Shown here one piece after another: positions 2,651-29,737 of a stretch of 29,737 bases of DNA (the first letter of the stretch is position 1; each line of letters begins with the position of its first letter). Source of the stretch: an uncultured bacterium. Its GTDB lineage: Bacteria > CSSED10-310 > CAZUFC01. The notes beneath the pieces are model-generated. The model was not told the DNA's origin and ran no database searches. It worked only from the letters and a program-made list of their open reading frames with translations. The translations under genes were made by a program, and so were the position numbers. Where the stretch lies: positions 21,038 through 50,774 of the forward strand of contig CAZUFC010000059.1 of assembly GCA_964619725.1 (NCBI GenBank). Direction: 5' to 3'.

Positions 2651-2678
2651 TTTATCGAATTTTTTTATACAATGTCAA
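2651..2678 (-). promoter_or_regulatory. Candidate sigma70 promoter for the TonB receptor
   Basis: Minus strand TTGACA-16 nt-GATAAA; perfect -35, weak -10. Confidence 0.3.
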
Positions 2679-2872
2679 CCCTTCCGCCCGGCGGGTTTTT
2701 GAATGGGGACGGAACGGCTCCATTCTTCATTAAAACGGAAATGGTAATACTTCTGGAAGCTGAGTTGCTCTTATGGTCTGATGGGACCGCGGACAGGGCT
2801 TCGTCAAGAGTCGATAGGGCTCGGTTTTTTGAGGATTGAATGATTTGCCGGAGGAGATGGAGAAATTGCCGC

Positions 2873-2901
2873 TTGACCCTGGAAAAGGGAAAAAATATAC
2901 T
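2873..2901 (+). promoter_or_regulatory. Candidate sigma70 promoter for tricorn protease
   Basis: TTGACC-17 nt-TATACT, 5/6 match at both boxes with canonical spacing, ~190 bp upstream of the start. Confidence 0.65.
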
Positions 2902-3090
2902 GAATTTCCGAAAGTCGGAGGCAGGAGTTAAGGCATTGTATTTTTTAATTTATGGAAGAAGAATATGAGTCGGGCCGGTATAGGCGTTTCTGGAAAAAGC
3001 CGGTAATGGCTGCGATGAGAGAACGGTCCGGCAGGCAAATGCGCAGGAGTGCGAATCAGGCAGTTTAACAACGAAAGGAAGAGGAAAAAT

Positions 3091-7459: not shown

Positions 7460-10400
7460 CTATGGTTCGCATCCCCATTCTACGGCTTCCCAGTTACCGA
7501 TAATTTGATTCATCTCTTGATTGAGCATCGCTCCGTAGAAATAAAGTCCATGGATTTCAACATTTCCGATATCAGGCCAGGTTATCGTGGGTATGACCTT
7601 TACAGGAGTCGTGCCCGTGGGTACGTTCATAATCTGATAATCGATTTCTTCCGATTCCGGCGGGTTATAATACTTCCAGCAAGGCCAGAACCAGTATTCT
7701 CCATAGATATCCATCAGGAAAAAAACGGGCACGTCGGTCATGGTATCGCCCGGATTATCGATATAAGCGTTTACAAAAAAATCATCCCCGGCATGAACGA
7801 CAGTCGGCATTTCCATTCTTACTCCCAGTTGCCAAACGATTGCACCGCCGATCAGGGTAATTTGAGGTAGAAATTTTCTTATAAAAGCATTGACGGTCGC
7901 CAGCCGTTCTGTATCCTGGACTCCCTCCGGCGTTCTGCCCAAAGTTTCCAAAGAAGTTCCTCCGGGCCCTCTTATACCCAGCGGATTCGCTTTCCAGATG
8001 ATCATATCGGCAAACCAGCCCGGACTTTCAGAACTTTCGCGAGGAACAGCGATGGCGCCCATTTCCTGGTCCAGGCCGGAAACGTATGCCGGCCAGAAGG
8101 TCATAGCGCTGAGCGCCTGTTCCACGGACAACCGCATGGGATTCGCCGGCGTTTGCGTCGTTAATCCCAGCGGACCGTATACTTTGCCGGCCAGATAATC
8201 GGTGGGTTTACAGGCAGGGTCCTCGCCGAATTTCCCGACCCAATCCGTCGGATTAATCTCAATGGGCGTTCTGGCGACGGCTGATATGAGAGTTATCACG
8301 GGTCTGGGATCGCGCACAGCCGGCGGATCGGTATCCAGCGCAAACGGAATATCATAATCCATGAACAGAGGACACGGCATATGATGATGCGACCGCGGCC
8401 TCCACGGTAAATTTCGCCAGAAACTGCCGATTTCGCAATCCGGTATTTTCCACAACTCCTGAGCATAAGGAAAGCCATTGTTTCTGATCGACTGTCCGTC
8501 CAATGCAAGAAGAGAAGGCTGAACTGAAAATACGACGTTTCTCGAATCGGGCGTCGTTTCTGAATCGATGCCGCCTGTACCTCTGATATCCTGAACAGCC
8601 CGGCATGACATGTTCAGAATATGCTCTATCCTGTATCGCTCATTGTCGAATTCACGGTCAACCAGCGATAAATCCGCATCCTCCGGTATTACGTCCTGCC
8701 AGTAAGAGGGAAGCTCTCCCCAGGTTTCGGGAAAATGCTCTACGTCATATTTCAGTTGCCTGATTATCCTGGCCCACACATCAACCGCTCCGTCTCCGAT
8801 GCAATGACATACCGTCTGACACGGCATGGGAACGCCTTCCGCCTTCGCTGCAGAACGCTCATAAAATATTTTCGCCGCTGCAGCCAGCGTCCTCTCATAG
8901 CCATCCTGAATCTGCTCTATCAGATCGCCCAGTTTTCCGGCCAGTTCAGCAGGCTGATCCCTCGGCGGATAACCCGATGTAATAAGTTCCACGTGATCAA
9001 GAGCATTCAGATCGTCCCGCAAATCCTGCTCGCTGATCTCCCTGTTCAGAAAACCGACTATCCCTTCCTTGAAAAAGGTCCAGTCGTTTTGCAGCGCATC
9101 GTTGTAATGCGGGGACGAGGGGTCCGATTCACGAACAAGCCAGTATAAGGCAGCCGTTTCACGACTCGTAAAAACCTGCTCCTGCAGATTAGTCATGGTC
9201 AGCAGGCCGTAGCTGTGATTGAGAAACGTCAGTGTATTGCCGTCTTCATCCTCCGTTTCGTAAGAATCATCCATACGAGCTTTCGCCATAGGGGCATTCG
9301 TGCAAAGCGTCCGGGCCCCTGTACCTCCGTCCAGTTGTATTTTCCATCCCAGCCACCTGACCCAACCGGGATACTCAGAATGCCCCGCCGGAGCCTGCAG
9401 CCGCTCCACGTCATATCCGTCTGTCGGACTATGCGCCAAACTCATTGTCTTCTGAACCTCTACTGCATTTTCAATGTAATAATAGAGGCCGACACGCAAA
9501 TTAAAAGGATCAGCGCTCGTCGGAACAGAATCTCGGTAACCCCGGCCGGCGCCTCCGTATCCCTCGCCGTGATCATACGACAGCGCTTCATAAGATTCAA
9601 ATTCATAAGTATTCGTCACACGGCGATAAAACATAATGTCGTTCACCGCGGTCACGCCATGCCTATGACACCAGTCTGCCAGCCTCCGGCGATGCTCCAT
9701 GCAATCTTCAACCGTCGGTTCATCAATGACGAAAGATGAAAGAGCATCCCTCATAACATAATGCTCGGCATAACCGCTGGGACGCCAGACGCCCGCTTCC
9801 GCATCATGAAAATACTGGATCAGGCCCCTTTCCGCTCCGTTATACCAGTTTGTGCCGTGAGGTTCCCTGGGGTCCCAGTCGCCGTAATCAAGCATTTCTT
9901 CACTGACGCTGTGATCAGCGTATTCCGCCGCATCCTGCCATTCAGCGTCCGTTATGCATTCAACAATCGTACGGTAAAAAGGAACCGCAGCCGCCGTAAA
10001 CTCAACTTCATTGAAAGCATCATAAGCCAGGTCCTCGATGAAAGGCCGTACCTTCAGCTCATGTTCTTCCGCATCACGGGATAGCGTCTGAAAAGGCACA
10101 TAAAGGTCTTCCCCCGGCGGATCATAAACCACTGCAATATCAATGGGATAAGGCGGCGCAAGCGACATAAGCTCGTTTAAATCCGGGTCTCCCGCATCAA
10201 GCCTGACAGTCCAATCATCTTCAGACGGTGACGGAGGTGAAATCGACAGAACCGATACCTCGTCAAATTTCTCGCCTAACTCGTTTTCCTGGTAATCGTT
10301 AAATGCCTCCAGCGTTTCTGAATTATACCAGCATGCCTGTCCGCTGGTATGGACCAGTACCGCCGCAGTGCTCTCATACGTTACGGGCGGCCATTCTGAT

Positions 10401-11278
10401 GGATCGGAATTGCATGGATCGCCGGGCGGTTCCTGCGGCGCTCCCGGACCCCGGCCGATACGGTTTAACAGATATACGTCATTATAAGTATTATGGTTAC
10501 AGTCGCCCCCGAATTCATACAAAAAAGTGCTCGGAAATTCATCATCGCCGATCGGTTCATCTATTTCCGTAAACCAGTAACCATGAAGGTATATGCTGTC
10601 CTTGTCCATCTCAGCAATGTGTCGATTCGCATCAGCGACTATGCTCCAAAGCGCCTCCCTTACGCATACCCGGCCCCAAGTCTCTACGTCCGTATAATAA
10701 GCAGGGTCGCCTACATCCGCCCAGAAACCGAATGTGTTTCCGGCCGCAGGTATCTTCTTTGACCAGCTCGTTACGTGAAAGTGATCGTCGATCATCCCCG
10801 GAGTTACTACCGCTCCCTGCAAATCGACAGGTTCAAACCCCGTTAACAGCTCTTCATCAACGCCTTCCGCACGCCAGTAATTCATTATTTCCGTTATAGT
10901 GACCCCTGGAGCCGGCGGATGCTCCATCGTCAGAAGGTCCGGATACTCGGAAACCGGCTTCGCCGTCAACCAACCGGGACCGGGATTCCCCGGCAAGGAC
11001 GGATAAATAGCCGCTATGCGTCCGTTATCAGGATCGATCAAAACGGCATGCAGAACATACAATCGATAACGATCGGCCTTGCTTGCTGCATCCAATGCTG
11101 AAACAGGGTCTACCGTCAAAAAATAACCGTTATACAAACACCGTAAACGCTCCGCAGCATCCGCACCATATCCGGTAAATTCCTCGAATTCCCTTTCTGC
11201 TCTACAGATTCCCTCGATGCCTGACAACGCTATGCAAAAAATAACTGCTGCCGATGCCGAAATTGCTGAAACTTTCAT
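7460..11278 (-). CDS. Large exported metal-dependent amidohydrolase (amidohydrolase_3/YtcJ-like) with extra C-terminal domain
   Basis: Signal peptide-like N-terminus; family motifs in order: DLQGAVVTPGMIDDHFH, HTSGQACWYNS, GVTAVND, KIQLDGGTGART, HCIGDGAV, RYRIEH, SVQP, ALDTDPP, LSVEQALSAMT..PAY...EMGAI, ADM. Confidence 0.85.
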   Translation of the reverse strand: MKVSAISASAAVIFCIALSGIEGICRAEREFEEFTGYGADAAERLRCLYNGYFLTVDPVSALDAASKADRYRLYVLHAVLIDPDNGRIAAIYPSLPGNPGPGWLTAKPVSEYPDLLTMEHPPAPGVTITEIMNYWRAEGVDEELLTGFEPVDLQGAVVTPGMIDDHFHVTSWSKKIPAAGNTFGFWADVGDPAYYTDVETWGRVCVREALWSIVADANRHIAEMDKDSIYLHGYWFTEIDEPIGDDEFPSTFLYEFGGDCNHNTYNDVYLLNRIGRGPGAPQEPPGDPCNSDPSEWPPVTYESTAAVLVHTSGQACWYNSETLEAFNDYQENELGEKFDEVSVLSISPPSPSEDDWTVRLDAGDPDLNELMSLAPPYPIDIAVVYDPPGEDLYVPFQTLSRDAEEHELKVRPFIEDLAYDAFNEVEFTAAAVPFYRTIVECITDAEWQDAAEYADHSVSEEMLDYGDWDPREPHGTNWYNGAERGLIQYFHDAEAGVWRPSGYAEHYVMRDALSSFVIDEPTVEDCMEHRRRLADWCHRHGVTAVNDIMFYRRVTNTYEFESYEALSYDHGEGYGGAGRGYRDSVPTSADPFNLRVGLYYYIENAVEVQKTMSLAHSPTDGYDVERLQAPAGHSEYPGWVRWLGWKIQLDGGTGARTLCTNAPMAKARMDDSYETEDEDGNTLTFLNHSYGLLTMTNLQEQVFTSRETAALYWLVRESDPSSPHYNDALQNDWTFFKEGIVGFLNREISEQDLRDDLNALDHVELITSGYPPRDQPAELAGKLGDLIEQIQDGYERTLAAAAKIFYERSAAKAEGVPMPCQTVCHCIGDGAVDVWARIIRQLKYDVEHFPETWGELPSYWQDVIPEDADLSLVDREFDNERYRIEHILNMSCRAVQDIRGTGGIDSETTPDSRNVVFSVQPSLLALDGQSIRNNGFPYAQELWKIPDCEIGSFWRNLPWRPRSHHHMPCPLFMDYDIPFALDTDPPAVRDPRPVITLISAVARTPIEINPTDWVGKFGEDPACKPTDYLAGKVYGPLGLTTQTPANPMRLSVEQALSAMTFWPAYVSGLDQEMGAIAVPRESSESPGWFADMIIWKANPLGIRGPGGTSLETLGRTPEGVQDTERLATVNAFIRKFLPQITLIGGAIVWQLGVRMEMPTVVHAGDDFFVNAYIDNPGDTMTDVPVFFLMDIYGEYWFWPCWKYYNPPESEEIDYQIMNVPTGTTPVKVIPTITWPDIGNVEIHGLYFYGAMLNQEMNQIIGNWEAVEWGCEP

Positions 11279-16465: not shown

Positions 16466-17479
16466 ATGGCTTTTATTGACGATCTGACGCGAAGACGGCT
16501 CCGAGCCTTCAGAAAAAGACAGACGGCTTTCTATTCGCTCATTATTTTCCTGCTTATGTTCGTCGTCGGCATGGGCGCTGACTTTATCGCCAACGACAGA
16601 CCTTATGTCATGAAATACCAGGGCGAATTATATTTTCCCATCCTTTTCGATTACCACCCCGAAGAATTCGGCAACGAATGGGCCCTCCATATGGACTACA
16701 AGCAATTCCAAAGCGACCATCAGGATGCGTGGATGCTCTTTCCCCCCATCTCTTGGGGCCCCTTCACCATCAATAAATTCGTGGAAGAATACCCCTCGCC
16801 GCCTTCCTGGGAAAATATCCTGGGAACCGACGACAGAGGTCGCGATGTCGCCTCCAGGCTCATATACGGATTCCGCAATTCCATGATCTACGCCCTGGGC
16901 GTCTGGATTCTCAGCTTCATCATCGGCATCATTTTCGGCGGCATTCAGGGATACTTTGGAGGTAAAGTGGACTTCGCCGGACAACGCCTCATAGAAATTT
17001 ACAATTCCATTCCTTATTTCTTCCTCCTGCTGATACTGATCTCCATCTTTCAACCCAACGTCTGGCTCCTGGTCGCCCTTTCATCAATCTTCGGATGGGT
17101 CAATATATCGCTCTACATGAGAGCCGAATTTCTGCGCCTGAGAAAATTCGATTTCGTGGAAGCCAGCCGCGCCCTCGGCATGAAACACGGCAACATCATC
17201 TTTAAACAGATACTCCCCAACGCACTCAACCCCGTCATCACATTCTCCCCCTTCCGTATCGCAGGCGGAGTCGTCGCTCTCGCCAGCCTCGACTACCTCG
17301 GTTTCGGACTCGCTCCGCCCGCCGCTTCCTGGGGAGAATTGCTGGGACAGGCCCATAAATACTACGACATCGCTCCCTGGCTCATGTTCTCCACTCTCAT
17401 CGCCATCTTCGGCACCGTCAGCCTCCTTAATATGATAGGCGAAGGCGTCAGAACCGCCTTCGATCCCAAGAAATATTGA
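16466..17479 (+). CDS. yejE: Peptide ABC transporter permease, YejE/OppC-like
   Basis: IANDRPYVMKYQGELYFP, PSPPSWENILGTDDRGRDV, EAA loop FVEASRALG, SLDYLGFGL, SWGELL, GEGVRTAFDPK; AAGGAGG RBS. Confidence 0.88.
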   Translation: MAFIDDLTRRRLRAFRKRQTAFYSLIIFLLMFVVGMGADFIANDRPYVMKYQGELYFPILFDYHPEEFGNEWALHMDYKQFQSDHQDAWMLFPPISWGPFTINKFVEEYPSPPSWENILGTDDRGRDVASRLIYGFRNSMIYALGVWILSFIIGIIFGGIQGYFGGKVDFAGQRLIEIYNSIPYFFLLLILISIFQPNVWLLVALSSIFGWVNISLYMRAEFLRLRKFDFVEASRALGMKHGNIIFKQILPNALNPVITFSPFRIAGGVVALASLDYLGFGLAPPAASWGELLGQAHKYYDIAPWLMFSTLIAIFGTVSLLNMIGEGVRTAFDPKKY

Positions 17480-17523
17480 TGCCGCTGCAACGCGCCGGAT
17501 CAACGAAAATAACGGGAGGAAAA

Positions 17524-17757
17524 ATGGCCGTTCAAGTAACCATTCATGAAGCCAAAACACATCTGTCGAAACTGATAAAAAAAGCGCTGAAAGGCGAAGA
17601 AGTGATCATCGCCAACAGAAATCAACCGCTCATTCGCCTGATGCCCCTTCCCGATGCTCAACCCGACAGAAGAATAGGCGGCGCCGAGGACATCATCCTC
17701 CACATGACCGAAGATTTTGATGCTCCACTGGATGATTTCAAGGATTACATGGAATGA
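17524..17757 (+). CDS. Type II antitoxin, Phd/YefM family
   Basis: VTIHEAKTHLSKLI...GEEVIIANRNQPLIRL...DFDAPLDDF; ATG 17524 after GGGAGG; ATGA overlap with the toxin gene. Confidence 0.93.
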   Translation: MAVQVTIHEAKTHLSKLIKKALKGEEVIIANRNQPLIRLMPLPDAQPDRRIGGAEDIILHMTEDFDAPLDDFKDYME

Positions 17758-18140
17758 ACGTGCTTCTCGACACTCACGCTTTTCTCTGGCTCATTTCCGC
17801 AGACGCACGGTTAAGCCGTAAAGCCGTTGACGTATTTCTGGACAAAAAAACCAATCTCTTTTTAAGCATAGCAAGTTACTGGGAAATCTGCGTGAAAATA
17901 AGCCTGGGTAAACTGGAATTAAGATCAGACTGGCCCGAAAAAATAGAAAAAGAAATAAATGTAAACCGAATTCAATTGCTCCCCATAAAACCGGATCACT
18001 GCATCAAAACCACGAACCTCCTGTTCAGCCACAGGGACCCCTTCGACCGGATGATAATAGCCCAGGCCATATCAGAAAAATTCCAGGTAATGACCAACAA
18101 CAAAAGTTTCGCCGACTACCCCATCTCCATTATCTGGTAA
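17754..18140 (+). CDS. vapC: Type II toxin, VapC/PIN domain
   Basis: LLDTHAFLW, SIASYWEI..K..LGKL, HRDPFDRMIIAQA. Confidence 0.93.
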   Translation: MNVLLDTHAFLWLISADARLSRKAVDVFLDKKTNLFLSIASYWEICVKISLGKLELRSDWPEKIEKEINVNRIQLLPIKPDHCIKTTNLLFSHRDPFDRMIIAQAISEKFQVMTNNKSFADYPISIIW

Positions 18141-18369: not shown

Positions 18370-18777
18370 TTAACGCTTATTTGTATTGTCATCATCAAGT
18401 TCAAAAGGAACCAGTATAAAATTACGCTCCTGAAGCATCTCTGCCGTCAACCGGGGAAACCTTTTTTCAGCTTCAGGCAGGTCGGGAATCTGATCTTCGG
18501 GAATGATGAAAATATTTAATTCAGGATGAAAAAGTTTCCCGGCTGGATGTGCCGAAAAGCCCTTTTTTTTAATAATTGCAGCAGTTTCGTCGTCAATGAT
18601 GTACATTTCGGCCGCATCCGCAAGCAGACGTTGCAGCCGGTACCAGGAACCCTTTGAATGTTTACGCTGACGATTTTCCCACCTGACGATCCGGGACCTG
18701 GACTTTATCCTGGAAACTCGCTTCCGCAACAGGCGAACTGCAAAGGATTTTTCGCCGCTATCCCTATCGGAACACAT
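18370..18777 (-). CDS. Hypothetical protein with basic N-terminal half, coupled to the nucleotidyltransferase
   Basis: 135 aa ORF starting 4 bp after the upstream stop; Arg/Lys-rich RLLRKRVSRIKSRSRIVRW...KHSKGSWYRL; no family recognised. Confidence 0.7.
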   Translation of the reverse strand: MCSDRDSGEKSFAVRLLRKRVSRIKSRSRIVRWENRQRKHSKGSWYRLQRLLADAAEMYIIDDETAAIIKKKGFSAHPAGKLFHPELNIFIIPEDQIPDLPEAEKRFPRLTAEMLQERNFILVPFELDDDNTNKR

Positions 18778-18781
18778 GGCA

Positions 18782-19474
18782 TTACACCTTTTCTATTCGC
18801 TGTATAAATTCAAAAATCATTTGTCGGCAAGGGCGCGGGTCCGGCATCGCATGATGAGGAGGAAGAGCTGACAGTAGCGTCAGATTGGTCAGAATCTGCT
18901 GCCGGAGCTCTGGATCGAGTTTTCCATACGACATAAGAAACTCGGTTTTCTCCTGTTCGTTGATGATAAGCAGGAGCGCAAGGGCAACCAGCAGGTCTCT
19001 TTCTCCTTTGATGCCTGAACGTTCCGTAAGGAGTTTTTCCAGAAGCAGTCCAGCCTTTTTCGGCATAGGTACGTTTATGCCGGCTATATTTATGACCTGC
19101 CCCGGCTCTATTAAAGATAAATTGCCCAGGACCATCATCGGCAGCCGGGAATCCTCCAGAACATAACTTTCCGAAATATCCGTCAATCTTCGGTCAATGC
19201 CGACTATATTGACTTCAAGCTGAGGACCCAGCGGCGTCAAAACGGATGGTTCATCTTCAGATATTTTAAAGGTTTGAAGTCCGGTGATTTTTTCTTTCAA
19301 TCCATTGTGCGCCTTAACATCTACCCCCAGATCGATATCCTTCGAAACGATAACAGGTGATTTTTCGTAGAAACTAAAAAGATTCGGCGCTTCCGATCCG
19401 ATGACTATAACCCCGTCAATAAATAAATCAGAAATATCTTTGATAGTCATTAAAAGTCTTTCAGCAAATTCCAT
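18782..19474 (-). CDS. Nucleotidyltransferase-fold protein (AbiEii/GSU2403-like)
   Basis: Pol-beta superfamily signature VIVIGS...SKDIDLGV and C-terminal P....LLEKL..R...K..RDL motif. Confidence 0.75.
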   Translation of the reverse strand: MEFAERLLMTIKDISDLFIDGVIVIGSEAPNLFSFYEKSPVIVSKDIDLGVDVKAHNGLKEKITGLQTFKISEDEPSVLTPLGPQLEVNIVGIDRRLTDISESYVLEDSRLPMMVLGNLSLIEPGQVINIAGINVPMPKKAGLLLEKLLTERSGIKGERDLLVALALLLIINEQEKTEFLMSYGKLDPELRQQILTNLTLLSALPPHHAMPDPRPCRQMIFEFIQRIEKV

Positions 19475-19617
19475 TTTTCCCTGAATTTTTCAGCCGAATG
19501 ACGGGTATCGCCGTCTCATCGGCTTAAAACGTTAGAAAATTACCGGTAAAACGATAAAAACGCCGAATCTTTCCCCGATTTCTTAACAATACCCCGTGTT
19601 TCTGATTAACAAACTCT

Positions 19618-20145
19618 ATGCAAATGCTTTTCAGGTCCTGCTCAAATCCGGCGAATCTTTACATCAATTCCAGAATAGTCGAACCGCCGCAAAAGTCAAA
19701 TACAAGTAGCATTGAACACCTCCAAAAGAGTACAAAAAACAGGAATTCAAACCTGGTTGAAACCGACTACAAATGCTATTATCAGCTTAAAACCAGTCAC
19801 AGATCTGAAGGAGTTTGTCATGAATTGGAATACGAAAACGTTACGGATAGAAAGATCATAGCGATAGAATTGGGACTGGTATCATTTGACGTATGGGATG
19901 ACTTCCTCCATTTCATGCACGGGTTGGATATGGAAAAACTTTCCCCTGGAAACGATGAGGACGGATTTTGGAAAGGCTATGACAAAAAAAGTTACTCTTT
20001 GAAACTGGGTATGGCTTTTGTTAATAGAGTTAGATTTGAAGACGGAGAAATCTGGCATGCTGACGCTGAAAAAATCCTTCAAGAGTTACAAAAGGTAGAT
20101 TCAAGCATTGACATTGACGACATCAAGAAGAAACGCGATAAGTAA
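19618..20145 (+). CDS. Hypothetical protein, start uncertain, possibly a 5'-degraded remnant
   Basis: C-terminal ~110 aa looks protein-like (YENVTDRKIIAIELGLVSFDVW...AFVNRVRFEDGEIWHAD); N-terminal ~55 aa looks low-quality and has no RBS; AT-rich. Confidence 0.45.
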   Translation: MQMLFRSCSNPANLYINSRIVEPPQKSNTSSIEHLQKSTKNRNSNLVETDYKCYYQLKTSHRSEGVCHELEYENVTDRKIIAIELGLVSFDVWDDFLHFMHGLDMEKLSPGNDEDGFWKGYDKKSYSLKLGMAFVNRVRFEDGEIWHADAEKILQELQKVDSSIDIDDIKKKRDK

Positions 20146-20189: not shown

Positions 20190-23100
20190 CTATTCCTGTT
20201 CAGCATCCTCCGCAAGGGAAACCAATCCCGAAGAATCCTCGTCTTCATCCTCCAGGAACCGGACCAGGCCGCCCCAACGTTTATCGAGTTTAAAATTACG
20301 TTTGAGGTAAAATTCGGGTATAAAGTAGAACGTTTTAACGATTTTAATGCCCTGGTTGTGCATGCGGGCGCAGAAATCTTCCAGCAGGGCGCTTCCGATG
20401 CCCCGGCTGCTGAGGGTATTTTCCACTACTACGCCGTCGAGGTGCGCGGACACTTCATCATCCAGAATTTTATAAGAGATTCCGCCGATAATGCGTTCCA
20501 GCGAATCGACGGCTACGAAGAAGCGGTCCTGCTGAGAGATTGTTTTGGGGTAATGCTGTTCCAGAAACATTCTGTAAAGGCGGCCGATTTCGGAGGCTCT
20601 TGTCGGTTCGTAGACGTAGTATTCCCGTCCTTCTTTATCGGTAATCTGTGTTCTGACGATCACGTGTCTGGTTTCTGCTTCGCCGACGGCCAGGGCTTCA
20701 GCATGCCGAATCCTGGCGGTTCTGGGGAATATCATTTTACTGAAGACGTCCCGGTCCTTCTGATTCGTCAAAAGCGCCTGAAGATCGGACAACTCCGTCA
20801 TAACGGTAGGCGGAGTATCCGGCGAATGGTGCATTTTACGCAGAAGCCGGCTGAAAGCCTGGGTAACGTTTGAACCGGCATGATCGAAATAGGTATGGCG
20901 GAACAGGGCGAACCGGGCGGTGGCGGGATGCCTGTCTATGCGATACAAACGATAAAGCTCATCGACCAGGTTGGCCCTGGCTTCATGCGTCGCTTCCGGG
21001 TTCGCTTTTTCCCACATCTTGAAGCGGTCTATCGCGCTGGTTAGGGCCAAAGGAGCGAAATACATGGTTTTAATTTTTTCCAAATAGTCATCGAGTCTGG
21101 CGGACAATTCACCGTCATTCATCGCGATGTTTTCTCGTTTCAGGTCCTCCTGTAGTTTGCTAAAAAACGCCGGCGCGGCATCGCTTCCCAGACTTTCCAT
21201 AGCGGCATCGAATATCCAGGAAGACTCCAGCAATGCTTCAGTCCAGGGATAAAACGCCGCTGTTTTCCGATAGAAATTTTTGACGAGCGGTTTCACCAGG
21301 TCCAGGGTATTTCGGTATTCTGTCCAGCCCAGGACCGACAGTATCCGTGACCCGATTCTGAAATCAGGTTCGGGCACCACGGTATTCATAGGGTCCACGC
21401 TGCCGGGAATTATCTTGAATTCGCTGCTTTTCAGCCCCGAATAATAAGCTGAAATTGCACGTGTGAATAGTTTCTGCAGGAATCTTTTGCGTTGAGTCGC
21501 CGCAGGCGTTGAACGTATCCCGTCGTATTCCCGCAACCTTTCCCAAACGGTCAAGCCTTTGATGTAAGCGAGAGACATCGCTCCCATTTCTGGACGAAAA
21601 CTTCCCAGTCGCGGCAAAGGAGAGTCCCCATGCGGATAACCGGCCACCGCCAGGAACCAGTAATTATCCTCCATTATCATCTCTTTTATCCCCTTTTCCT
21701 GCATGGAAATCAGAAGATTGAAATGCCTGCCCGATTCCGTCCTTATGCTCGCCAGATACTTGTTGATTTCCCGACCGGATTGAAGGCGCGTTATCCATAT
21801 TCCCCCTTCTTTAACATCGTTCAAATCAAAAATTTCTTCATTAAAGGCCAGCATGAGCGATTTATGCAGAAAAGTCGTACCGGCAACCAGTTTTTTCAAT
21901 TTTTCAACCTCATATCCTGATATCGATTCATCGAATACTATCCGTTTCATCCATTCTGCAGCGGAGTATCCGGATATTTTTCTTTCGATCCTGGCATCGA
22001 ACCATTCTCCCAGACCCATGAGCGTTTGATGAGCCGTTTCCGCTAACTCCTTATCCTCCTGGTGAAGCGCCCAGGCGGCCAGTTCCGCTCTCACGGAAGA
22101 ATAATATGAAATGTTGTTCTGTACGAATTGAGTCAGCAAAACGAATATATGTTTGAATTGTTTCCTTACTGTCGGATCGGCAGGCCACTGCAACTGAGTT
22201 CTGTAAGAATGCAGCCGTTTTCGCAGGGCATCGAGTCTTCTTTTTTCAATGTTTTTTTCAGCCAGTATCTGGATTGATTCTTCATTCAGAAATGATAAAC
22301 CCGAATAAACGAATTCCGGGAAAACCTTGCCGTAGTCCGGCGTCGGGTCTTCAACGAGAATTATTCGATAGGCGAGACTTCTGATTTCTTCGGAAGGGTG
22401 GTGCGACAAAGCGCCTAACCGGCTGGTGATGAGTCTGCCCGTCCTGTCGTCGGCTTCCTTCAGCAGAGACTCCATCTCCTGAACAGCCGCCCTGGAATTA
22501 TCCGGACTCCCGAACAGCGCTTTAACGGAAAGGTCATTGATTTTAACTAATCTCTGATCTCTAATTTGACTTAACGGAAACTCCACGGGAACCGATGTTT
22601 CCATTTTTGCCCGGAACGGCAGGAATATCTGCTCAGAAACGGGGCCGAACGGAACATACCAGCCTTCTTTGCAGGGAGAGAATAAAATAAGCGAAGGATT
22701 GCCCGTCCAAAGTCCGGGTTTGCGGGAAAACAAGCCCATATCGACGATATCCTCTTTGATGCGGTATTCAAGGTCGCCGATAAGGATATTGCCGTTTTTC
22801 ATTTTTTCAAGCTTCAGGGTTAACTCTCTGTTTTTATCATACAAGGCATTATCCTGAAAAATAATGTCAGATTCAAGAATGCCCAGATCGCGGAAGAACC
22901 AACGGGGAATTCTGACGGTAAGGCGGCCTTTTTTCAGTTCAACGAACGCTTTTTCATACAGCCGCTCAATCACTTCTTTAAAGTTTTTTTCAATAACCTT
23001 CCGTTTGAAGGAACCCTTTGGCGTCAATTCACCGTGTTCCGCATCAAAATCACGGTCCAGCACTGCAATATTGACGACTCTTTCATAAGGCGCCAGCTCC

Positions 23101-24872
23101 TGGTTGGCTGCTGATGCAATGCGTTGATAATAGGAGAGTCGGTCTTCTTCCCGTTGCATGGATTCCGTTTTCATTAGGGGTTCTTCAGGATCGGGCGTTA
23201 TAAGCAGCACATTGTAATCCCTGCCGTCTCCCACCAGGAAGGTTTGCTTTATACCCGGCACATCGACGAATTTCTGTTCGACACGCCTGGGAGCCACTGT
23301 TTGTCCGCGATTATTTTTATATATATCTTTTATTCTGTCGACGATTTCATAGTGCCCGTCCTCACGCTTTCGAAACAGATCGCCGGTAGGCAGCCAGTAA
23401 TCATCGTCAAACGGGGGAATCCTCCACGAAGGTTCCTGATGATCGTCGAACGTATCCAGGTAACGGGCGATATAAGGACCGGAAATGAGCAGCTCTCCTT
23501 TTTCAGTAGACCGCAAATAAGCGCCGGGCAGCGCTTTACCCACGGAATTGTCCTGGTATTCTCCCGGAGGCGTCATAGTCAATCCGCCGGTAGCCTCAGT
23601 CATGCCGAAGCCGCTGCATAACGCCGTACCGTTCCGGTGAAAAAAATGAAATACGCCGGGGTCCAGGTATCCTGCAGCGGACAATCCCCATCTCAACCGC
23701 CCGCCCGTCAACTCGTCGAATATCTTTTTTTGCAACTCCAAAGATGCCGTTTGTCCCCCCTTTTCAATGCACTCATCACGCAATTGAATCCAACGAAGAG
23801 GTATCCCGATCAGACCCGTAGGACGCGCTTCCGGAAGACAGCGTAACAAAGCCTCGAAAGAAGGATTGCCTGAAAAGACATAAGTTCCGCCCCAGTAGAT
23901 CATTCCCAGCATCTCCAGAAAACGTCCGAACGTATGATAAAGCGGCAGATAACACAACAGAGTTTCATCACGTCCTACTCCAGGAAGCGCCGCAGCCCTG
24001 GCGAACCGCTTGGTCACCATGTTGAATTGCGAAAAACATACTCCCTTCGGCTTTCCCGTGCTCCCGGAAGTAAACAGTGCCGATGCGACTTCATCTACCG
24101 GCTTTCTGCGGCGGGACGACAACAAAGATTCAATATCAGCGGCAGAAAGCAGGGAACAAGCCTCTCCCAGATAATAATCCTCATCACGAAGCTCATCGTT
24201 GTCCTTATCCGTGACAAATATCTGAAAAGGCGTTTCAACTCTTGAAGAAACCTTCATCAAACGACGCAGGCGGTCCCGGGAATCGGTCACAGCGATATTT
24301 ATTCCAAGCTTGTTAAATATATGCGTCAAAGTCTCCTCATCAAAATGAACATTCAAGGGAACCGTAAGTATGTCATAAAACAGGCATCCCAGATCAGCAC
24401 AAGCCCCATCCGCACAGTTTTCAAGAAATATAACGACACGGGGTTCTTTTCTGCTCTTATAAAAAGCCGCCGCTATCCGCCGCGTATAACGATCGACATC
24501 GGCATAATTCCATTGGCGCTGAAACGAATTCACCGACTCCTCAAACAATACCCTTTCAGGCGACTCTTCCGCACGCTGTCGGAATAAATCCAGCAAATTA
24601 TAATCAGAATGAAAAACAGCCTTGAATACCGTCTCAGCCCAACGCTCCCGCAACTCATATTCCCCCAGACTAAGCAAAAACCGCGGCCGCCCGGTATAAT
24701 TCAAATACTCATGCCAGACCGAAGACTCGACTTTTTCACCAACGCCACGCTCCCACATATCCTCAGCAAGCGATAAAACCTGTAAAGCCTCCGCCGGCAA
24801 TAGTTCTTCAGAATGAATATCCTCTTTAAAAGCCCGTAACTTTTCAATCAATCTCACCGCCATAGCCCCCAT
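20190..24872 (-). CDS. Multidomain protein: long-chain acyl-CoA-synthetase-like adenylation domain, large central region, C-terminal GNAT acyltransferase
   Basis: AMP-binding motifs FTSGSTGKPKG, YLPLYH, GFGMTE, TGD, VDRIKD, ELTPKGSFKR; GNAT motif A SRGIGSALL and FYLKRNF at the C-terminus. Confidence 0.9.
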   Translation of the reverse strand: MGAMAVRLIEKLRAFKEDIHSEELLPAEALQVLSLAEDMWERGVGEKVESSVWHEYLNYTGRPRFLLSLGEYELRERWAETVFKAVFHSDYNLLDLFRQRAEESPERVLFEESVNSFQRQWNYADVDRYTRRIAAAFYKSRKEPRVVIFLENCADGACADLGCLFYDILTVPLNVHFDEETLTHIFNKLGINIAVTDSRDRLRRLMKVSSRVETPFQIFVTDKDNDELRDEDYYLGEACSLLSAADIESLLSSRRRKPVDEVASALFTSGSTGKPKGVCFSQFNMVTKRFARAAALPGVGRDETLLCYLPLYHTFGRFLEMLGMIYWGGTYVFSGNPSFEALLRCLPEARPTGLIGIPLRWIQLRDECIEKGGQTASLELQKKIFDELTGGRLRWGLSAAGYLDPGVFHFFHRNGTALCSGFGMTEATGGLTMTPPGEYQDNSVGKALPGAYLRSTEKGELLISGPYIARYLDTFDDHQEPSWRIPPFDDDYWLPTGDLFRKREDGHYEIVDRIKDIYKNNRGQTVAPRRVEQKFVDVPGIKQTFLVGDGRDYNVLLITPDPEEPLMKTESMQREEDRLSYYQRIASAANQELAPYERVVNIAVLDRDFDAEHGELTPKGSFKRKVIEKNFKEVIERLYEKAFVELKKGRLTVRIPRWFFRDLGILESDIIFQDNALYDKNRELTLKLEKMKNGNILIGDLEYRIKEDIVDMGLFSRKPGLWTGNPSLILFSPCKEGWYVPFGPVSEQIFLPFRAKMETSVPVEFPLSQIRDQRLVKINDLSVKALFGSPDNSRAAVQEMESLLKEADDRTGRLITSRLGALSHHPSEEIRSLAYRIILVEDPTPDYGKVFPEFVYSGLSFLNEESIQILAEKNIEKRRLDALRKRLHSYRTQLQWPADPTVRKQFKHIFVLLTQFVQNNISYYSSVRAELAAWALHQEDKELAETAHQTLMGLGEWFDARIERKISGYSAAEWMKRIVFDESISGYEVEKLKKLVAGTTFLHKSLMLAFNEEIFDLNDVKEGGIWITRLQSGREINKYLASIRTESGRHFNLLISMQEKGIKEMIMEDNYWFLAVAGYPHGDSPLPRLGSFRPEMGAMSLAYIKGLTVWERLREYDGIRSTPAATQRKRFLQKLFTRAISAYYSGLKSSEFKIIPGSVDPMNTVVPEPDFRIGSRILSVLGWTEYRNTLDLVKPLVKNFYRKTAAFYPWTEALLESSWIFDAAMESLGSDAAPAFFSKLQEDLKRENIAMNDGELSARLDDYLEKIKTMYFAPLALTSAIDRFKMWEKANPEATHEARANLVDELYRLYRIDRHPATARFALFRHTYFDHAGSNVTQAFSRLLRKMHHSPDTPPTVMTELSDLQALLTNQKDRDVFSKMIFPRTARIRHAEALAVGEAETRHVIVRTQITDKEGREYYVYEPTRASEIGRLYRMFLEQHYPKTISQQDRFFVAVDSLERIIGGISYKILDDEVSAHLDGVVVENTLSSRGIGSALLEDFCARMHNQGIKIVKTFYFIPEFYLKRNFKLDKRWGGLVRFLEDEDEDSSGLVSLAEDAEQE

Positions 24873-25102: not shown

Positions 25103-26164
25103 ATGAGCAAGATAAGTCTTTTTACCTGGTTTCCTCCATTGAAGAAAAAACTGCCTCACATATCGATCATAGAGGCGCCGACGCCTTTGGAAAAGCTGAC
25201 GCGGCTGGGTGAAAGCCTGGGGCACGACCAATTATGGGTCAAACGCGATGATGCCACGGTTAAACCTTACGGCGGCAATAAACCGAGGAAACTGGAATTT
25301 TTACTCGGCGATGCGAAACAGAGACGCGCTTCAGCCGTAGCCACGACAGGCGGCATAGGTTCCAATCACAGCCTGGCGACGACCATTTACGCCGGCAAGC
25401 TGGGTTTTCCCGTGCACCTCATACTCGTTCCCCAACCTGTGACGCCGCATGTCAGAATGAGTCTCCGGCTGTTCATTCATTTCGGCGCCCATTTGCATCT
25501 TTGTCCGGAATATGAGGAGGTAATGCAGCAGGTTGAGCGATTGCAGCGGAACATCGAAGGTCTATATTTCATACCGGCAGGCGGATCGAATGCACTGGGC
25601 GCGCTGGGATTCGTCAATGCCGCTTTGGAACTGGCCGACCAGACAACGCAACGGATAATGCCGGAACCGCAGGCCCTCTTCGTTCCTGCAGGCACCTGCG
25701 GCACGCTCGCCGGGTTAGCCCTGGGATTCAAAATCGCTCGTTTGAATACGAAAATATACGGCGTCAGGGTCGTCGACACATCCGTCACCAATGCCGATAC
25801 CGTCCTGGAATTAATGGACGGTTCGTGTAAAATTCTTCGAGACCTGACCCAGGATATTCCCAGGGTTAAAATAAATCAAAGCAATTTTGAAATACTCGAA
25901 GGTTACTTCGGGGAAACGTACGGTCAGGTCACCCCTGAAGGCATAGAGGCCAAAGAAATAATGAGAAAAACCGAAGATATCCCCCTGGAAACCACTTACA
26001 CCGCTAAAACGGTCGCTGCAATGAAAGACTATATTGACGAGTCGCTTCAGAAAAGACCGCTTTTATATTGGAACACCTTTGCCGGACCTGTACTGGAAAA
26101 GGAAGCGAAAACGGTCGGAATGGACCGCATACCCGAAGATTTTAAACAATTTTTCAAGGATTAA
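25103..26164 (+). CDS. PLP-dependent D-cysteine desulfhydrase/ACC deaminase family enzyme
   Basis: PTPLEKL, WVKRDD, PLP Lys motif GGNKPRKLE, GGIGSNH, IPAGGSNALG.LGFV.AALEL, GTCGT.AGL, LETTYTAK; AAGGAG RBS. Confidence 0.9.
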   Translation: MSKISLFTWFPPLKKKLPHISIIEAPTPLEKLTRLGESLGHDQLWVKRDDATVKPYGGNKPRKLEFLLGDAKQRRASAVATTGGIGSNHSLATTIYAGKLGFPVHLILVPQPVTPHVRMSLRLFIHFGAHLHLCPEYEEVMQQVERLQRNIEGLYFIPAGGSNALGALGFVNAALELADQTTQRIMPEPQALFVPAGTCGTLAGLALGFKIARLNTKIYGVRVVDTSVTNADTVLELMDGSCKILRDLTQDIPRVKINQSNFEILEGYFGETYGQVTPEGIEAKEIMRKTEDIPLETTYTAKTVAAMKDYIDESLQKRPLLYWNTFAGPVLEKEAKTVGMDRIPEDFKQFFKD

Positions 26165-26185
26165 TACTCAAAAAGAAGGACAAAA

Positions 26186-28408
26186 ATGAAACCGGTATAT
26201 CTCGACTATAACGCCACCACTCCCATAGACAAAGAAGTCGCTGAAGCCATGCAACCTTACCTGACCGAACATTTCGGGAATCCTTCCAGTTCCCACTGGT
26301 TCGGCATACAGACGAAAAAGGCGGTGGAAAAAGCCAGGGCTCAATCAGCCGAACTTTTAGGATGCGACATTGATGAAGTAATATTTACCAGCGGGGGAAG
26401 CGAATCGAACAATTACGCGATTAAAGGCGCTGCCATGGCTTATCGGAATCGAGGCGATCACGTCATTACGACAGCCGTGGAGCATCCGGCAGTGCTGGAA
26501 GTATGCCGGTATCTGGAGATGAACGGTTTTCGCATTTCAGTCGCTCCGGTAGACCGGCACGGTATGGTCAGCGTCCAGGAAATCGAAAAGCTCATAACCC
26601 CGCAGACAATACTGATAACGGTCATGCACGCCAACAATGAAGTAGGAACCATACAACCGGTCCGTGAGATTGCGGAAACCGCGAAAAAAAATGGAATACT
26701 CATGCACACGGATGCGGCTCAATCCGTGGGAAAAATTCCCGTAAACGTAAACGAGCTGGGAGTCGACCTGCTCTCGGCAGCCGGACACAAGTTTTATGCG
26801 CCCAAAGGCATCGGCGCTTTGTTTATCCGGCGAGGAACCGAACTGGAAAAACTGGTTCATGGTGCAGACCATGAGCAGAACAGGCGAGCCGGCACGGAAA
26901 ACGTCCTGGAGATCGTGGGAATAGGAAAAGCGGCTGAAATAGCGAAACGTGATTTAAACAAAAACAGTGAACATATGAAACGCATGCGGGACAGGCTGCA
27001 TGAAGGATTAAAAGAAAACTGCCGGAACATAGCCTTGAACGGTCATCCGGAAAAACGCCTTCCCAATACTTTAAGCATTGGTTTCAGAGGTATAGAAGCG
27101 AATACGCTGTTGTCCGAGCTGGAAGACGTCGCCGCATCGGCCGGCGCCGCCTGTCACGCTGACCAGGTTGATGTCTCATCGGTCCTGGAAGCAATGAAAA
27201 CCCCGGTAGAATACGCCATGGGAACCGTGCGTTTTTCAACGGGAAAGCTGACGACTGCCGATGAAGTAGACCGGGCAGTAAACAGGATATCAGAAGCGGT
27301 AAAACGCTTAAGTCCCCGGGAAACAGAAGATGAACCCGTTGTATTAACCGGAACGGGAGATGACGTTAAACTGACGCATTTTACTCACGGGCTGGGTTGC
27401 GCCTGTAAAATTCAACCTCAGTCGCTGGAAAAAATACTGGAAAAACTGCCGGTACCGACCGATCCCTCAATCCTGGTCGGTGCAGAAACCTCAGACGATG
27501 CAGCAGTTTACAGACTCTCTGATAACCTGGCTGCCATATTGACGCTGGATTTTTTTACTCCCATAGTAGATTCGCCCTACTATTTCGGCGCCATAGCTGC
27601 CGCCAACGCTCTAAGCGACATATACGCCATGGGCGGAAAGCCGGTTATGGCCCTGAATATAGTAGGATTCCCGGCCGCCAGATTACCCCTGACCATCCTG
27701 GAAACCATCCTGAAAGGAGCCTCCGACAAAGCTGAAGAAGCCGGCATAAGCATCCTGGGCGGACATACCGTGGACGATACGGAACCCAAATACGGCATGG
27801 CCGTTATGGGCATCTTATCTCCGGACGCTATTATAACCAATCGCAATGCTCAACCCGGAGATGCCCTCATACTGACAAAACCCCTCGGAACAGGAATAAT
27901 CACCACGGCCGGCAAACGCGGCCTGGCCGATGAACGAACCATGAATGAAGCCATTGAAATAATGAGCGCCCTCAACCATAAAGCCGCACAGACAATGATG
28001 AATTATCCGGTCAATGCCTGCACGGATATTACAGGCTTTGGACTGATGGGTCACCTCAAGGAAATGACACAGGGCAGCCGGACTGATGCCGTAATTTACG
28101 CCGAAAAAACTCCCATTATACCGAAAGCAAGAGACTTCGCCGCCGCCAATGTTGTGCCGGGCGGTTCCCTGAGTAACGTTCAGTATGTTTCAACAATCGT
28201 CGATTGGGATAAATCAGTTTCACAACTGGATAAAATATTGCTGTGTGATGCTCAAACTTCCGGGGGCCTGCTGATCTCATTGCCGGCGCAATATGAAGAA
28301 AGCTTCTTACAGGAATTGAAAAAACAGGGAATAAAAAACGCCGCAGGCATAGGATACATCCTCCAGAACGGATCAGGAAAAATAAACGTTAAATCGATGA
28401 AGGAGTAA
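26186..28408 (+). CDS. selD: Fusion of NifS/IscS-type cysteine desulfurase (selenocysteine lyase-like) and selenide, water dikinase
   Basis: N-half: YLDYNATTP, GNPSS, FTSGGSE, EHPAV, HTDAAQ, GHKFYAPKG, RAGTEN, SAGAACH. C-half: GCACK, DDAAVY, DFFTPIVD, ANALSDIYAMGG, GGHT, TDITGFGL.GH, DAQTSGGLL. Confidence 0.95.
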   Translation: MKPVYLDYNATTPIDKEVAEAMQPYLTEHFGNPSSSHWFGIQTKKAVEKARAQSAELLGCDIDEVIFTSGGSESNNYAIKGAAMAYRNRGDHVITTAVEHPAVLEVCRYLEMNGFRISVAPVDRHGMVSVQEIEKLITPQTILITVMHANNEVGTIQPVREIAETAKKNGILMHTDAAQSVGKIPVNVNELGVDLLSAAGHKFYAPKGIGALFIRRGTELEKLVHGADHEQNRRAGTENVLEIVGIGKAAEIAKRDLNKNSEHMKRMRDRLHEGLKENCRNIALNGHPEKRLPNTLSIGFRGIEANTLLSELEDVAASAGAACHADQVDVSSVLEAMKTPVEYAMGTVRFSTGKLTTADEVDRAVNRISEAVKRLSPRETEDEPVVLTGTGDDVKLTHFTHGLGCACKIQPQSLEKILEKLPVPTDPSILVGAETSDDAAVYRLSDNLAAILTLDFFTPIVDSPYYFGAIAAANALSDIYAMGGKPVMALNIVGFPAARLPLTILETILKGASDKAEEAGISILGGHTVDDTEPKYGMAVMGILSPDAIITNRNAQPGDALILTKPLGTGIITTAGKRGLADERTMNEAIEIMSALNHKAAQTMMNYPVNACTDITGFGLMGHLKEMTQGSRTDAVIYAEKTPIIPKARDFAAANVVPGGSLSNVQYVSTIVDWDKSVSQLDKILLCDAQTSGGLLISLPAQYEESFLQELKKQGIKNAAGIGYILQNGSGKINVKSMKE

Positions 28409-28412
28409 TCAG

Positions 28413-28883
28413 ATGCTGAACCTCGATATACCCGGTTTCGGAAAGATGGAACTGGAACATGCCGTTTTCGACTACAACGGCACTTTGGCGGTGGACGGTA
28501 AATTGATCCAGGGCATAACCGAACGCCTGGAAAAACTGTCCCAAATCCTGGTGGTTCACGTAGTAACCGCAGACACATTCGGCCTGGCCGCAAAGGAAAC
28601 GAAAAAATTCCCCTGCCGCCTTCACATACTGGAAAAAAATCAAGAAGAAACGCAAAAACTCGATTACATAAAAAAATTGAATAAAATAAAAACCGCCGCT
28701 GTAGGAAACGGAGCCAACGACAGGATGATGCTGAAACAGGCCCGCCTGGGCATAGCGGTAACAGGCCCTGAAGGAGCAGCCCAGGAAACATGCCGCGCCG
28801 CAGACATAATAGTCCCCGACATAGCCGCAGCCATAAATTTATTATTGAATCCCAAAAGAATAAAAGCCACACTCAGATGTTGA
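28413..28883 (+). CDS. Small HAD-superfamily hydrolase (soluble P-type ATPase-like)
   Basis: Motif I FDYNGTLAVDG, motif II TADTFG, motif IV VGNGAND, C-terminal PKRIKATLR; AAGGAG RBS overlapping the selD stop. Confidence 0.9.
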   Translation: MLNLDIPGFGKMELEHAVFDYNGTLAVDGKLIQGITERLEKLSQILVVHVVTADTFGLAAKETKKFPCRLHILEKNQEETQKLDYIKKLNKIKTAAVGNGANDRMMLKQARLGIAVTGPEGAAQETCRAADIIVPDIAAAINLLLNPKRIKATLRC

Positions 28884-28924
28884 TTCTCAAACACGATTAA
28901 ACCAGTAAAGAAAATAATAGGGCG

Positions 28925-29039
28925 CTGATCAAAAATGGCCATGTCAGGGTTACAATTTCTCAGTTTGAAACCCTCGTGCTCGTGCTCAGTGCAGCGGTAA
29001 TCGTAATCGAAACATTGGTCTGATCTGTACAGTCGTTTG
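28925..29039. repeat. 115-bp direct repeat, copy 1, containing 6-bp periodic core (ctcgtg)n...(gtaatc)n
   Basis: 110/115 identical to 29471-29585. Confidence 0.95.
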
Positions 29040-29069
29040 AAAGCAAAGCAGGGCAATCATCTTAATCGA

Positions 29070-29107
29070 TCGATTACGATGACGAGCGCCGCTCCGCTGA
29101 GCAAGAA
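29070..29107. repeat. Inverted, diverged copy of the 6-bp periodic core
   Basis: tcgattacgatgacgagcgccgctccgctgagcaagaa resembles the reverse complement of 28973-29010 (tcgattacgattaccgctgcactgagcacgagcacgag). Confidence 0.75.
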
Positions 29108-29470
29108 AGTTCTTTTTGAGTATCGAGATCACAATTTGTAACCCCTGTTTGATCAGTTCCGTCAGAAGAACACATATCTCCTCGTAATTATTTGTTGCGA
29201 TACCGATAACGACGCCGAGACAAACGGCCATCGATGTAAAAATTTTTGCCGGCATATCGGCTTGCTTTTTTGATTGTTGTAGAGGGGGAGTCAGATTGGG
29301 TTATTTTTGAGCTGGTCAGGGGTATAGTTGGGTTATATTTTGGCTGGTTGGGGGAATCACCTCCTTTACATATCCTGACATTGACCGGTAAAATTTTTGA
29401 ACAGTTTAAACAACACACAACAAGATTATAAAATTTCGGGATTGATCAAACCGGGGTTACACTTTTTTCA

Positions 29471-29585
29471 CTGATCAAAAATAGCCATGTCAGGGTTACA
29501 ATTTCTCAGTTTGAATCCTTCGTGCTCGCGCTCAGTGCATCGGTAATCGTAATCGAAACATTGGTCTGATCTGTACAGTCGTTTG
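29471..29585. repeat. 115-bp direct repeat, copy 2
   Basis: 5 substitutions and no indels relative to 28925-29039. Confidence 0.95.
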
Positions 29586-29737
29586 TAAGTAAAGTCTGAA
29601 CTCCTGACAAGAATGTCACAACCTATTGAAAAAGTGTGATTTTCTTGCAGTGTAAATCGGCATAATAATTGTGAAGTTTTTACCCCCCCTATATCCGGTG
29701 GAAGAGAGTCGATTAATCGAAATTCAAACATGAGCTC

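Follow-up and report, generated by a model that had tools for sequence, protein, structure and literature searches.

We analysed a stretch of 29,737 nucleotides (below, the window, meaning this whole stretch; positions without a locus name are counted from its first letter) from contig CAZUFC010000059.1 (C59) of assembly GCA_964619725.1, an uncultured bacterium of the lineage CSSED10-310. Three genes stand in a row there on the same strand: one for a pyridoxal phosphate (PLP) enzyme resembling the D-cysteine desulfhydrase DcyD, one for a fusion of a NifS-like PLP enzyme with the selenophosphate-forming enzyme SelD, and one for a small protein of the haloacid dehalogenase superfamily (HAD, which below denotes this protein and its family). 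What is new is the HAD family as a candidate accessory gene of the SelD trait, for which the genomic support is mixed but real; we lean toward the view that, over some or all of its range, the family has a function connected with selenium metabolism. The fuller account, in which a NifS–SelD fusion of a known kind serves the selenocysteine (Sec) machinery, HAD serves the SelD trait as an accessory phosphatase, and the DcyD-like gene is a chance neighbour, seems to us evenly poised between right and wrong. The features concerned are as follows.

25103-26164, + strand: DcyD-like PLP gene, 353 aa, PF00291 (PALP)
26186..27310, + strand: NifS/IscS-like PLP half of the fusion (K202, C323); PF00266 at E 1e-81, NF002806 over cut-off, TIGR03402 below cut-off
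27362..28408, + strand: Cys-type SelD half of the same 740-aa open reading frame (ORF), motif C405-A-C-K408; TIGR00476 at 392.7 bits (cut-off 125)
28413-28883, + strand: capless HAD of the 'soluble P-type ATPase'/'ATPase P' family, candidate selenium-trait accessory phosphatase, 156 aa

HAD genes beside selenium genes

Gene neighbourhoods were compared at 184 HAD loci (75 from Desulfobacterota, 88 from Bacillota, and 21 from Chloroflexota) with flanks of about 1.5-5 kb; individual loci, genomes, and contigs carry the prefixes L, G, and C. The Desulfobacterota genomes, 201 in number, were sampled evenly from the phylum to which a metagenome-assembled genome (MAG) labelled 'Deltaproteobacteria' belongs, a phylum that we took as Desulfobacterota, and 72 of them carry HAD; the Bacillota sample comprises 301 genomes, 85 of them with HAD. 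At 15 of the 184 loci, a selenium gene directly adjoins HAD on the same strand: selD at 7, selA at 1, a selenium-associated LysR gene without selD at 6, and a TIGR01977 gene at 1. Among the Desulfobacterota, HAD lies directly upstream of selD at 6 loci, ends a tRNA-Sec–selA–HAD run at 1, and sits beside a LysR gene without selD at 3 more, with the LysR gene first. Among the Bacillota, HAD follows selD on its 3' side at 1 locus, in the gene order of the window, adjoins a LysR gene at 3, and precedes the TIGR01977 gene at 1; looser associations are seen at L425, where HAD lies 1.3 kb past selA-selB-selC, and at 1 locus where the opposite strand carries a YedF-family gene 0.9 kb away. Seven of the 8 neighbouring LysR proteins scanned pass the cut-off of NF040786 (selenium metabolism-associated LysR); the LysR of L405 fails it, and that of L334 was assigned by its 70% identity to a passing one. 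TIGR01977 is described in Haft & Self 2008 (PMC2276186) as a probable selenocysteine lyase.

A naive expectation for the number of adjacent HAD loci is 0.5-1.6, compared with the 15 observed. Even if the Desulfobacterota cases are counted as one old block, about 6 separate arrangements are left (L425 included), with P between 2e-5 and 6e-3 under the naive model, and the window and the fusion locus L196 (see below) come on top of these. The adjacency is spread over different gene orders and over several branches of HAD trees, which are quick trees whose deep forks are unsupported. This is evidence of the same type, selD co-occurrence plus clustering, as that brought for YedE, YedF, and LysR_Se as well as DUF3343 (Lin 2015, PMC5322559) and for TIGR01977 (PMC2276186). 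HAD itself clusters with LysR_Se and TIGR01977 and once lies near YedF; it is predicted to be a hydrolase, and it shares with DUF3343 that it is not confined to genomes with selD.

Two observations on these loci may be recorded separately. A two-gene unit of selenium LysR (NF040786) and HAD, with or without selD, occurs in two phyla (L275, L276, L279, L282, L301, L334, L354, L373, and L396). At L425 (positions 1767-4884), an integrase gene and a toxin–antitoxin-like pair flank HAD just past tRNA-Sec, so that this locus may involve an element integrated at selC.

Co-occurrence of HAD with selD

HAD is present in 14-36% of the sampled genomes of three anaerobe-rich phyla. In Bacillota, selD was found in 84 of the 85 genomes with HAD and in 128 of the 216 without it (p 1e-14). 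For cbiD, a gene unrelated to selenium that served as control, the corresponding figure is 102/124; the value for HAD is higher (p 7e-5), and the effect of HAD holds in each cbiD stratum (50/51 vs 52/73; 34/34 vs 76/143). The Chloroflexota point the same way, with selD in 19 of 21 HAD genomes and in 88 of 130 others (p 0.04), while only 1 of 251 Bacteroidota genomes carries HAD, also together with selD, a sample of little power.

Family, fold, and motifs of the HAD protein

Family matches of the HAD protein are weak and of a HAD/P-type-ATPase-like kind. Alignment gives the motifs D20-Y-N-G-T, T52-A-D54, K82, and G98-N-G-x-N-D103; the nucleophile D20, T52, K82, and D103, together with a Rossmann-like fold (from alignment, structure model, and fold search), place the protein in the HAD superfamily, with D54 and E120 as invariant residues specific to the family. 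The canonical DxD motif is absent: over 196 sequences, the +2 position is Asn in 176, Thr in 12, Glu in 5, Asp in 1, and unmatched in 2. In HAD enzymes generally, the +2 Asp protonates poor leaving groups, and its loss here is compatible with an acyl phosphate or phosphoanhydride as substrate, or with a small X-PO3 compound (seleno-, thio-, or fluorophosphate). Close relatives bear the names 'soluble P-type ATPase' or 'ATPase P' in JGI, NCBI, and UniRef, a family whose number we take to be COG4087. The protein resembles the P-domain of P-type ATPases and is without membrane, A, or N domain; its length of 156 aa, its DYNGT in place of DKTGT, and its TIGR01494 score (30.6 < 62.3) set it apart from the transport P-type ATPases.

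The structure model is confident (predicted local distance difference test, pLDDT, 97.2), and its nearest solved folds are KdsC/YrbI (E 2e-7, template modelling score, TM, 0.6-0.7). With these capless (C0) enzymes HAD shares the Rossmann-like core and the lack of a cap; it differs from them in its low identity (13-18%), in having DxN instead of DxD, and in the absence of a sugar-phosphate pathway context. No HAD fused to SelD or NifS was found: among 1,011 candidates, 3 longer matches held no such domain, which is weak evidence. These 3 are apparently mis-called or joined neighbours, and we set aside HAD fusions as a Rosetta stone; longer HAD representatives have N-terminal extensions only.

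We found no selenium link or function for the HAD family names in the literature, supplements and subscription journals lying outside the search. By term searches, the family is unnamed in the main text of Lin 2015 (PMC5322559), PMC2432076, PMC9312934, and PMC13188914; the supplements of Lin 2015, Mariotti 2015, and PMC5029168 could list it.

The NifS–SelD fusion and the selenium traits of the genome

The fusion is a single-frame ORF (26186-28408, + strand, 740 aa) with an N-terminal class-V aminotransferase domain (Aminotran_5) and a C-terminal SelD (AIRS + AIRS_C), and its catalytic residues are in place: none of K202, C323, C405, C407, and K408 varies across an alignment of 32 fusions. The NifS half passes the IscS-subfamily model NF002806 alone, remaining below the NifS equivalog TIGR03402 (481 < 531) and the Sec lyase model SclA (NF040779, 139 < 525). 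Relatives are plentiful: of 8,000 candidates (407-1295 aa), 3,689 match at E<=1e-150, and the 120 listed are all full-length matches at 62-69% identity. NifS–SelD fusions have been described (Zhang & Gladyshev 2008, PMC2398784; Mariotti 2015, PMC4561486), nearly always of the Cys type and in genomes with Sec machinery according to the latter. The present one has the same domain order, is of the Cys type, and comes from a genome with Sec machinery, with no essential difference; fusions were far commoner in our searches than these papers report. We consider it very likely that this known and common fusion feeds the genome's ordinary Sec trait.

That trait is complete. The sequence-only reading had noted that the window holds no selA, selB, selU, or yqeB/C, and this held among the 17 window ORFs scanned against Pfam and NCBIfam families; an Rfam scan of the window for RNA families likewise gave no match. 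The same reading had implied that the selenium gene is an orphan and had proposed a survey of the genome for selA, selB, selC, selU, and yqeB. Once run, this survey found selA on C74, selB on C22, and tRNA-Sec on C21, all other contigs of the same assembly, as well as a second SelD on C204, of the Sec type, whose catalytic position is an in-frame TGA and to which the SelD half of the fusion is 48% identical. With the Sec machinery located elsewhere in the genome, we dropped both the orphan-SelD reading and that of a new selenium trait. For selU and yqeB the survey gave no match, and in the assembly (91% complete, 6.5% contaminated) there was no match over cut-off to selU, yqeB, yqeC, or the SenB family, so that the selenouridine trait (selU), the Se-cofactor trait (yqeB + yqeC), and the selenoneine trait (senB; senA was not searched) were not detected. 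Membership of C204 in the bin is less sure, since this contig is short and compositionally more distant (0.0115; 95th percentile 0.0131). The tetranucleotide composition of C59 is typical of the bin (rank 42/137), which speaks against C59 being a binning artefact.

A crude selenoproteome scan gave 321 raw candidates, mostly noise. At least one UxxC selenoprotein candidate is encoded in the present genome (G000): on the - strand of contig C56, an exported redoxin-like gene reads T-U-G-G-C at an in-frame TGA.

Conservation of the three-gene arrangement

The ORFs of the three genes were found again as first described: all read along the + strand, with 21 bp between the first two and 4 bp between the last two. 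Co-transcription is suggested by the short gaps only; a promoter/terminator scan gave counts close to the shuffle level (8 vs 5.1±2.2 and 9 vs 6.7±2.7). The sequence-only reading had seen in these genes a dedicated unit for salvage from both D- and L-(seleno)cysteine, and had named a search of gene neighbourhoods as the way to check it. We examined 97 other fusion loci among the matches listed (80 metagenomic and 17 genomic, forming 92 clusters at 90% identity). The metagenomic sample was chosen by the Cys-type motif, and 38 of 118 matches that came without flanks were dropped; in the genome scan, 16 of the 72 loci among the matches listed are full fusions. At least 600 bp of upstream sequence was available at 70 of the 97 loci and at least 400 bp of downstream sequence at 78, and neighbours were detected by tblastn at E<=1e-3, a setting that elsewhere picked up DcyD-family members of 29-31% identity. 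None of the 97 listed loci has a DcyD-like neighbour by tblastn, and 1 has a HAD neighbour (L196, convergent, 14 bp away). The three families are not linked in other genomes, which rules out a conserved three-gene operon among the loci listed and leaves the D/L salvage pathway unsupported.

The commonest neighbour of the fusion is instead selU/mnmH, at 11 of the 97 loci listed (L040, L046, L129, L137, L139, L145, L157, L159, L177, L187, and L190), a gene with no match in the present genome. Two Calditrichaceae MAGs (L041, L042) have an NAD(P)H-hydrate epimerase domain gene (TIGR00197), then the fusion, then an enoyl-CoA hydratase-like gene. At one of the 97 fusion loci, the SelD motif is GLGEACK and lacks the catalytic Cys.

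The DcyD-like gene

The best match of the DcyD-like protein in the PDB is the Salmonella D-cysteine desulfhydrase (4d8t, E 3.9e-39), while its best NCBIfam matches, CuyA, TIGR01275, DcyD, and XcbE, all stay below cut-off; the scores for the D-cysteine desulfhydrase models (TIGR01275, PRK03910) are 184 < 289, this one being TIGR01275, then 164 < 429, 162 < 469, and 150 < 610. By alignment to 4d8t and conservation in 120 relatives, the DcyD active-site set is K60, S87, Y299, T300, and T325. The protein shares the fold-type II PLP enzyme architecture of DcyD (4d8t), ACC deaminase (ACC being 1-aminocyclopropane-1-carboxylate), CuyA, and XcbE and keeps the DcyD catalytic residues; it differs from DcyD at Gly86, which is Gly in 120/120 relatives and Gln in DcyD. 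In ACC deaminase numbering, a mapping that we assume in part from a published description, T300 and T325 stand in place of Glu295 and Leu322, and the ACC deaminase model TIGR01274 scores 84 < 392. Positions diagnostic of D-cysteine desulfhydrase as against ACC deaminase are given in PMC4048297, a table of which also lists DL-selenocystine and DL-selenocysteine as taken by the E. coli D-cysteine desulfhydrase. Because the DcyD-type site is kept and the E. coli enzyme accepts DL-selenocyst(e)ine, activity of the DcyD-like enzyme on D-selenocysteine is chemically possible. Judged by its sequence, the protein is a separate subfamily of the D-cysteine desulfhydrase/ACC deaminase family.

Six of 13 same-phylum genomes carry a DcyD-family match. 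The three closest same-phylum orthologues (48-49%) adjoin threonine-synthase-like or deoC genes, and their genomes are without the fusion; 7 of the 17 fusion-bearing genomes hold distant DcyD-family members only (29-42%), with no selenium gene nearby. Overall, a selenium gene was found beside 0 of 14 DcyD-family loci (about 1.5 kb per side), and the genomes compared give no connection between this subfamily and selenium. We therefore regard the DcyD-like gene as probably an incidental neighbour of the selenium genes. A protein of 1,560 aa is encoded divergently from it (window 20190-24872, - strand), in which a long middle part without family match separates an AMP-binding domain (acyl-CoA ligase-like) at the N-terminus from a GNAT domain at the C-terminus; no such AMP-binding/GNAT gene was matched beside DcyD-like homologues in six homologous loci, and a link between the two genes is unsupported there.

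Proposed role of HAD and alternative explanations

In the scheme we propose, the NifS half would strip selenium from L-selenocysteine onto C323 and hand it to the SelD half, which would make selenophosphate using ATP, both steps being those expected of the families. Because it is of the Cys type, the fusion would need no Sec for its own synthesis, and it could prime the Sec-type SelD on C204 or serve as its backup. HAD would be a capless Mg-dependent aspartyl phosphotransferase without a general-acid Asp at +2, which is in keeping with a substrate that is small and has a good leaving group, and it might hydrolyse surplus selenophosphate, or else thiophosphate formed in error if sulfur comes from the NifS half. 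Thiophosphate is a product that SelD-family enzymes can form. Removal of selenophosphate by HAD would also reset the selenium LysR regulator; LysR_Se has been proposed to sense selenophosphate (PMC5322559). Seleno- or thiophosphate as the HAD substrate is possible but on the unlikely side; the genomic context (selD co-occurrence and repeated adjacency to selD, selA, LysR_Sec_metab, and TIGR01977 in other phyla) does lend independent support to the guess of the sequence-only reading that HAD is a (seleno/thio)phosphate phosphatase. More speculative still, and rather improbable as a whole, is the idea that selenium metabolism has its missing off-switch in the HAD family, which would be a seleno/thiophosphatase proofreading what SelD makes and resetting the LysR that senses selenium, with the same X-PO3 chemistry (X = Se, S, F) explaining the copies in fluoride-riboswitch cassettes. 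If true, it would extend the SelD pathway by a catabolic or a proofreading reaction, and a family that wrongly bears the name of an ATPase would gain a function. The literature we found does not address the disposal of surplus selenophosphate or the keeping of sulfur out of the selenium donor pool.

A good deal weighs against a dedicated selenium role for HAD, and much of it would be expected if the three genes were unrelated neighbours and HAD a general fluoride-sensitive housekeeping phosphatase of anaerobes (acting, for example, on acyl phosphate or a phosphoanhydride), with the overlap with selD due to lineage and lifestyle and the adjacency to selenium genes to a few old syntenies. No selenium gene adjoins HAD at 169 of the 184 loci (about 92%), including all 21 from Chloroflexota, and no HAD was found within 6 kb of stand-alone selD or nifS loci. 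Other single-copy genes recur beside HAD as well, which we take to be nifU-like (9 loci), secA-like (8), and enolase-like (7). The Desulfobacterota, in which selD is near-universal, show no enrichment (64/72 vs 121/129, p 0.28). Neither selD nor selA was found in six HAD genomes (G494, G068, G088, G200, G233, and G259), and selD is missing from two more (G829 and G953), all eight without a completeness figure. HAD is present in only 5-6 of 17 fusion-bearing genomes, in a set of 35 genomes that includes 20 fusion-linked or related picks, and the fusion therefore does not need HAD. All the p-values are overstated, since kin are not independent, and cbiD was the only control gene; LysR and TIGR01977 were put on the list of selenium genes after being seen. 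A fluoride riboswitch accompanies 4 of 79 HAD loci scanned, all four among 20 picked for suspicious neighbours, and fluoride-riboswitch cassettes with pyrophosphatase, DUF190, and MutS are among the HAD contexts; PMC11139923 finds that genes annotated as HAD often stand behind fluoride riboswitches and explains them as making up for inhibition by fluoride, through overexpression of the inhibited phosphatases. In archaea, a same-named family (arCOG01579), equated with HAD by name only, occurs in most methanogens and in Thermoplasmata; its share is >90% of methanogens outside Methanomassiliicoccales according to PMC4153887, and the Methanobacteriales are without selenoproteins according to PMC3087415. 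Set against a chance arrangement is that selD in Bacillota (84/85) exceeds the cbiD control in both strata, and that the adjacency spans five selenium genes in different orders and at least two phyla, with the window and L196 in addition; we hold this explanation to be a real but minor possibility.

Two further explanations fall between or beyond these. HAD could belong to wider sulfur and selenium trafficking, or be a phospho-accepting partner of SelD-fold enzymes that clears a phospho-intermediate or by-product and does not act on free selenophosphate. This would cover both the nifU/nifS neighbours (nifU-like at the 9 loci above, and HAD-nifU-nifS at L283) and the presence in methanogens that bear SelD homologues, every methanogen genome then sequenced having one (PMC3087415), and the HAD motif is indeed nearer to P-type ATPase P-domains than to DxD phosphatases; yet no fusion of HAD to SelD or NifS appeared in the 3 longer matches, weak evidence in itself, and the archaeal link is by name, and we think it improbable. 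Least probable of all, to the point of being a long shot, is the dedicated three-gene unit, in which D-selenocysteine would give up its selenium to the DcyD-like enzyme and L-selenocysteine to the NifS half, with SelD making selenophosphate and HAD tuning the process. The tight co-orientation, the DcyD-type rather than ACC-deaminase-type residues, the Sec machinery in the genome, and the substrates of the E. coli enzyme (PMC4048297, as above) are in keeping with it, and a recent lineage-specific operon is conceivable because the database searched holds no relative of the genome from the same genus or family, or from any rank below the phylum. Against it stand the absence of a DcyD-like neighbour from all 97 fusion loci listed, the different settings of the three nearest same-phylum orthologues, whose genomes have no fusion, the distant DcyD-family members in the 7 fusion genomes, and scores under every DcyD cut-off. 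Thus the three-gene pathway is unsupported and the fusion in itself ordinary, and it is the candidate role of HAD in the SelD trait that carries the interest of the locus.

Other HAD contexts and further features of the window

At L460, a fluoride riboswitch lies directly upstream of HAD. This cassette (L460:4078-6242, NZ_CP143553.1, a Burkholderia multivorans plasmid) holds three fluoride riboswitches and genes for a hydrogenase-like protein, DUF190, HAD, pyrophosphatase, a dynamin-family protein, and MutS. In Clostridium drakei (L336:1320-1377), a Na+ riboswitch (RF03071) lies between HAD and an NhaA-like antiporter gene. The nifU-like neighbours of HAD are found at L283, L288, L307, L310, L313, L314, L318, L351, and L353.

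Just downstream of HAD, the window contains two partial copies (28920-29160 and 29470-29595) of an interspersed repeat of about 240 bp, present in at least 26 near-full copies in the genome at 88-94% identity, often at contig ends; it looks like a miniature mobile element. Elsewhere in the window, a Phd/YefM-DUF2281 antitoxin and a PIN-domain toxin (17476-18140, + strand) lie directly 3' of an oligopeptide ATP-binding cassette (ABC) operon, and ORFs of 135, 230, and 175 aa without Pfam or NCBIfam match occupy 18370-20145. A protein of 1,272 aa with a weak amidohydrolase-3 match only is encoded at 7460-11278 (- strand), near a gene for an extracytoplasmic function (ECF) sigma factor.

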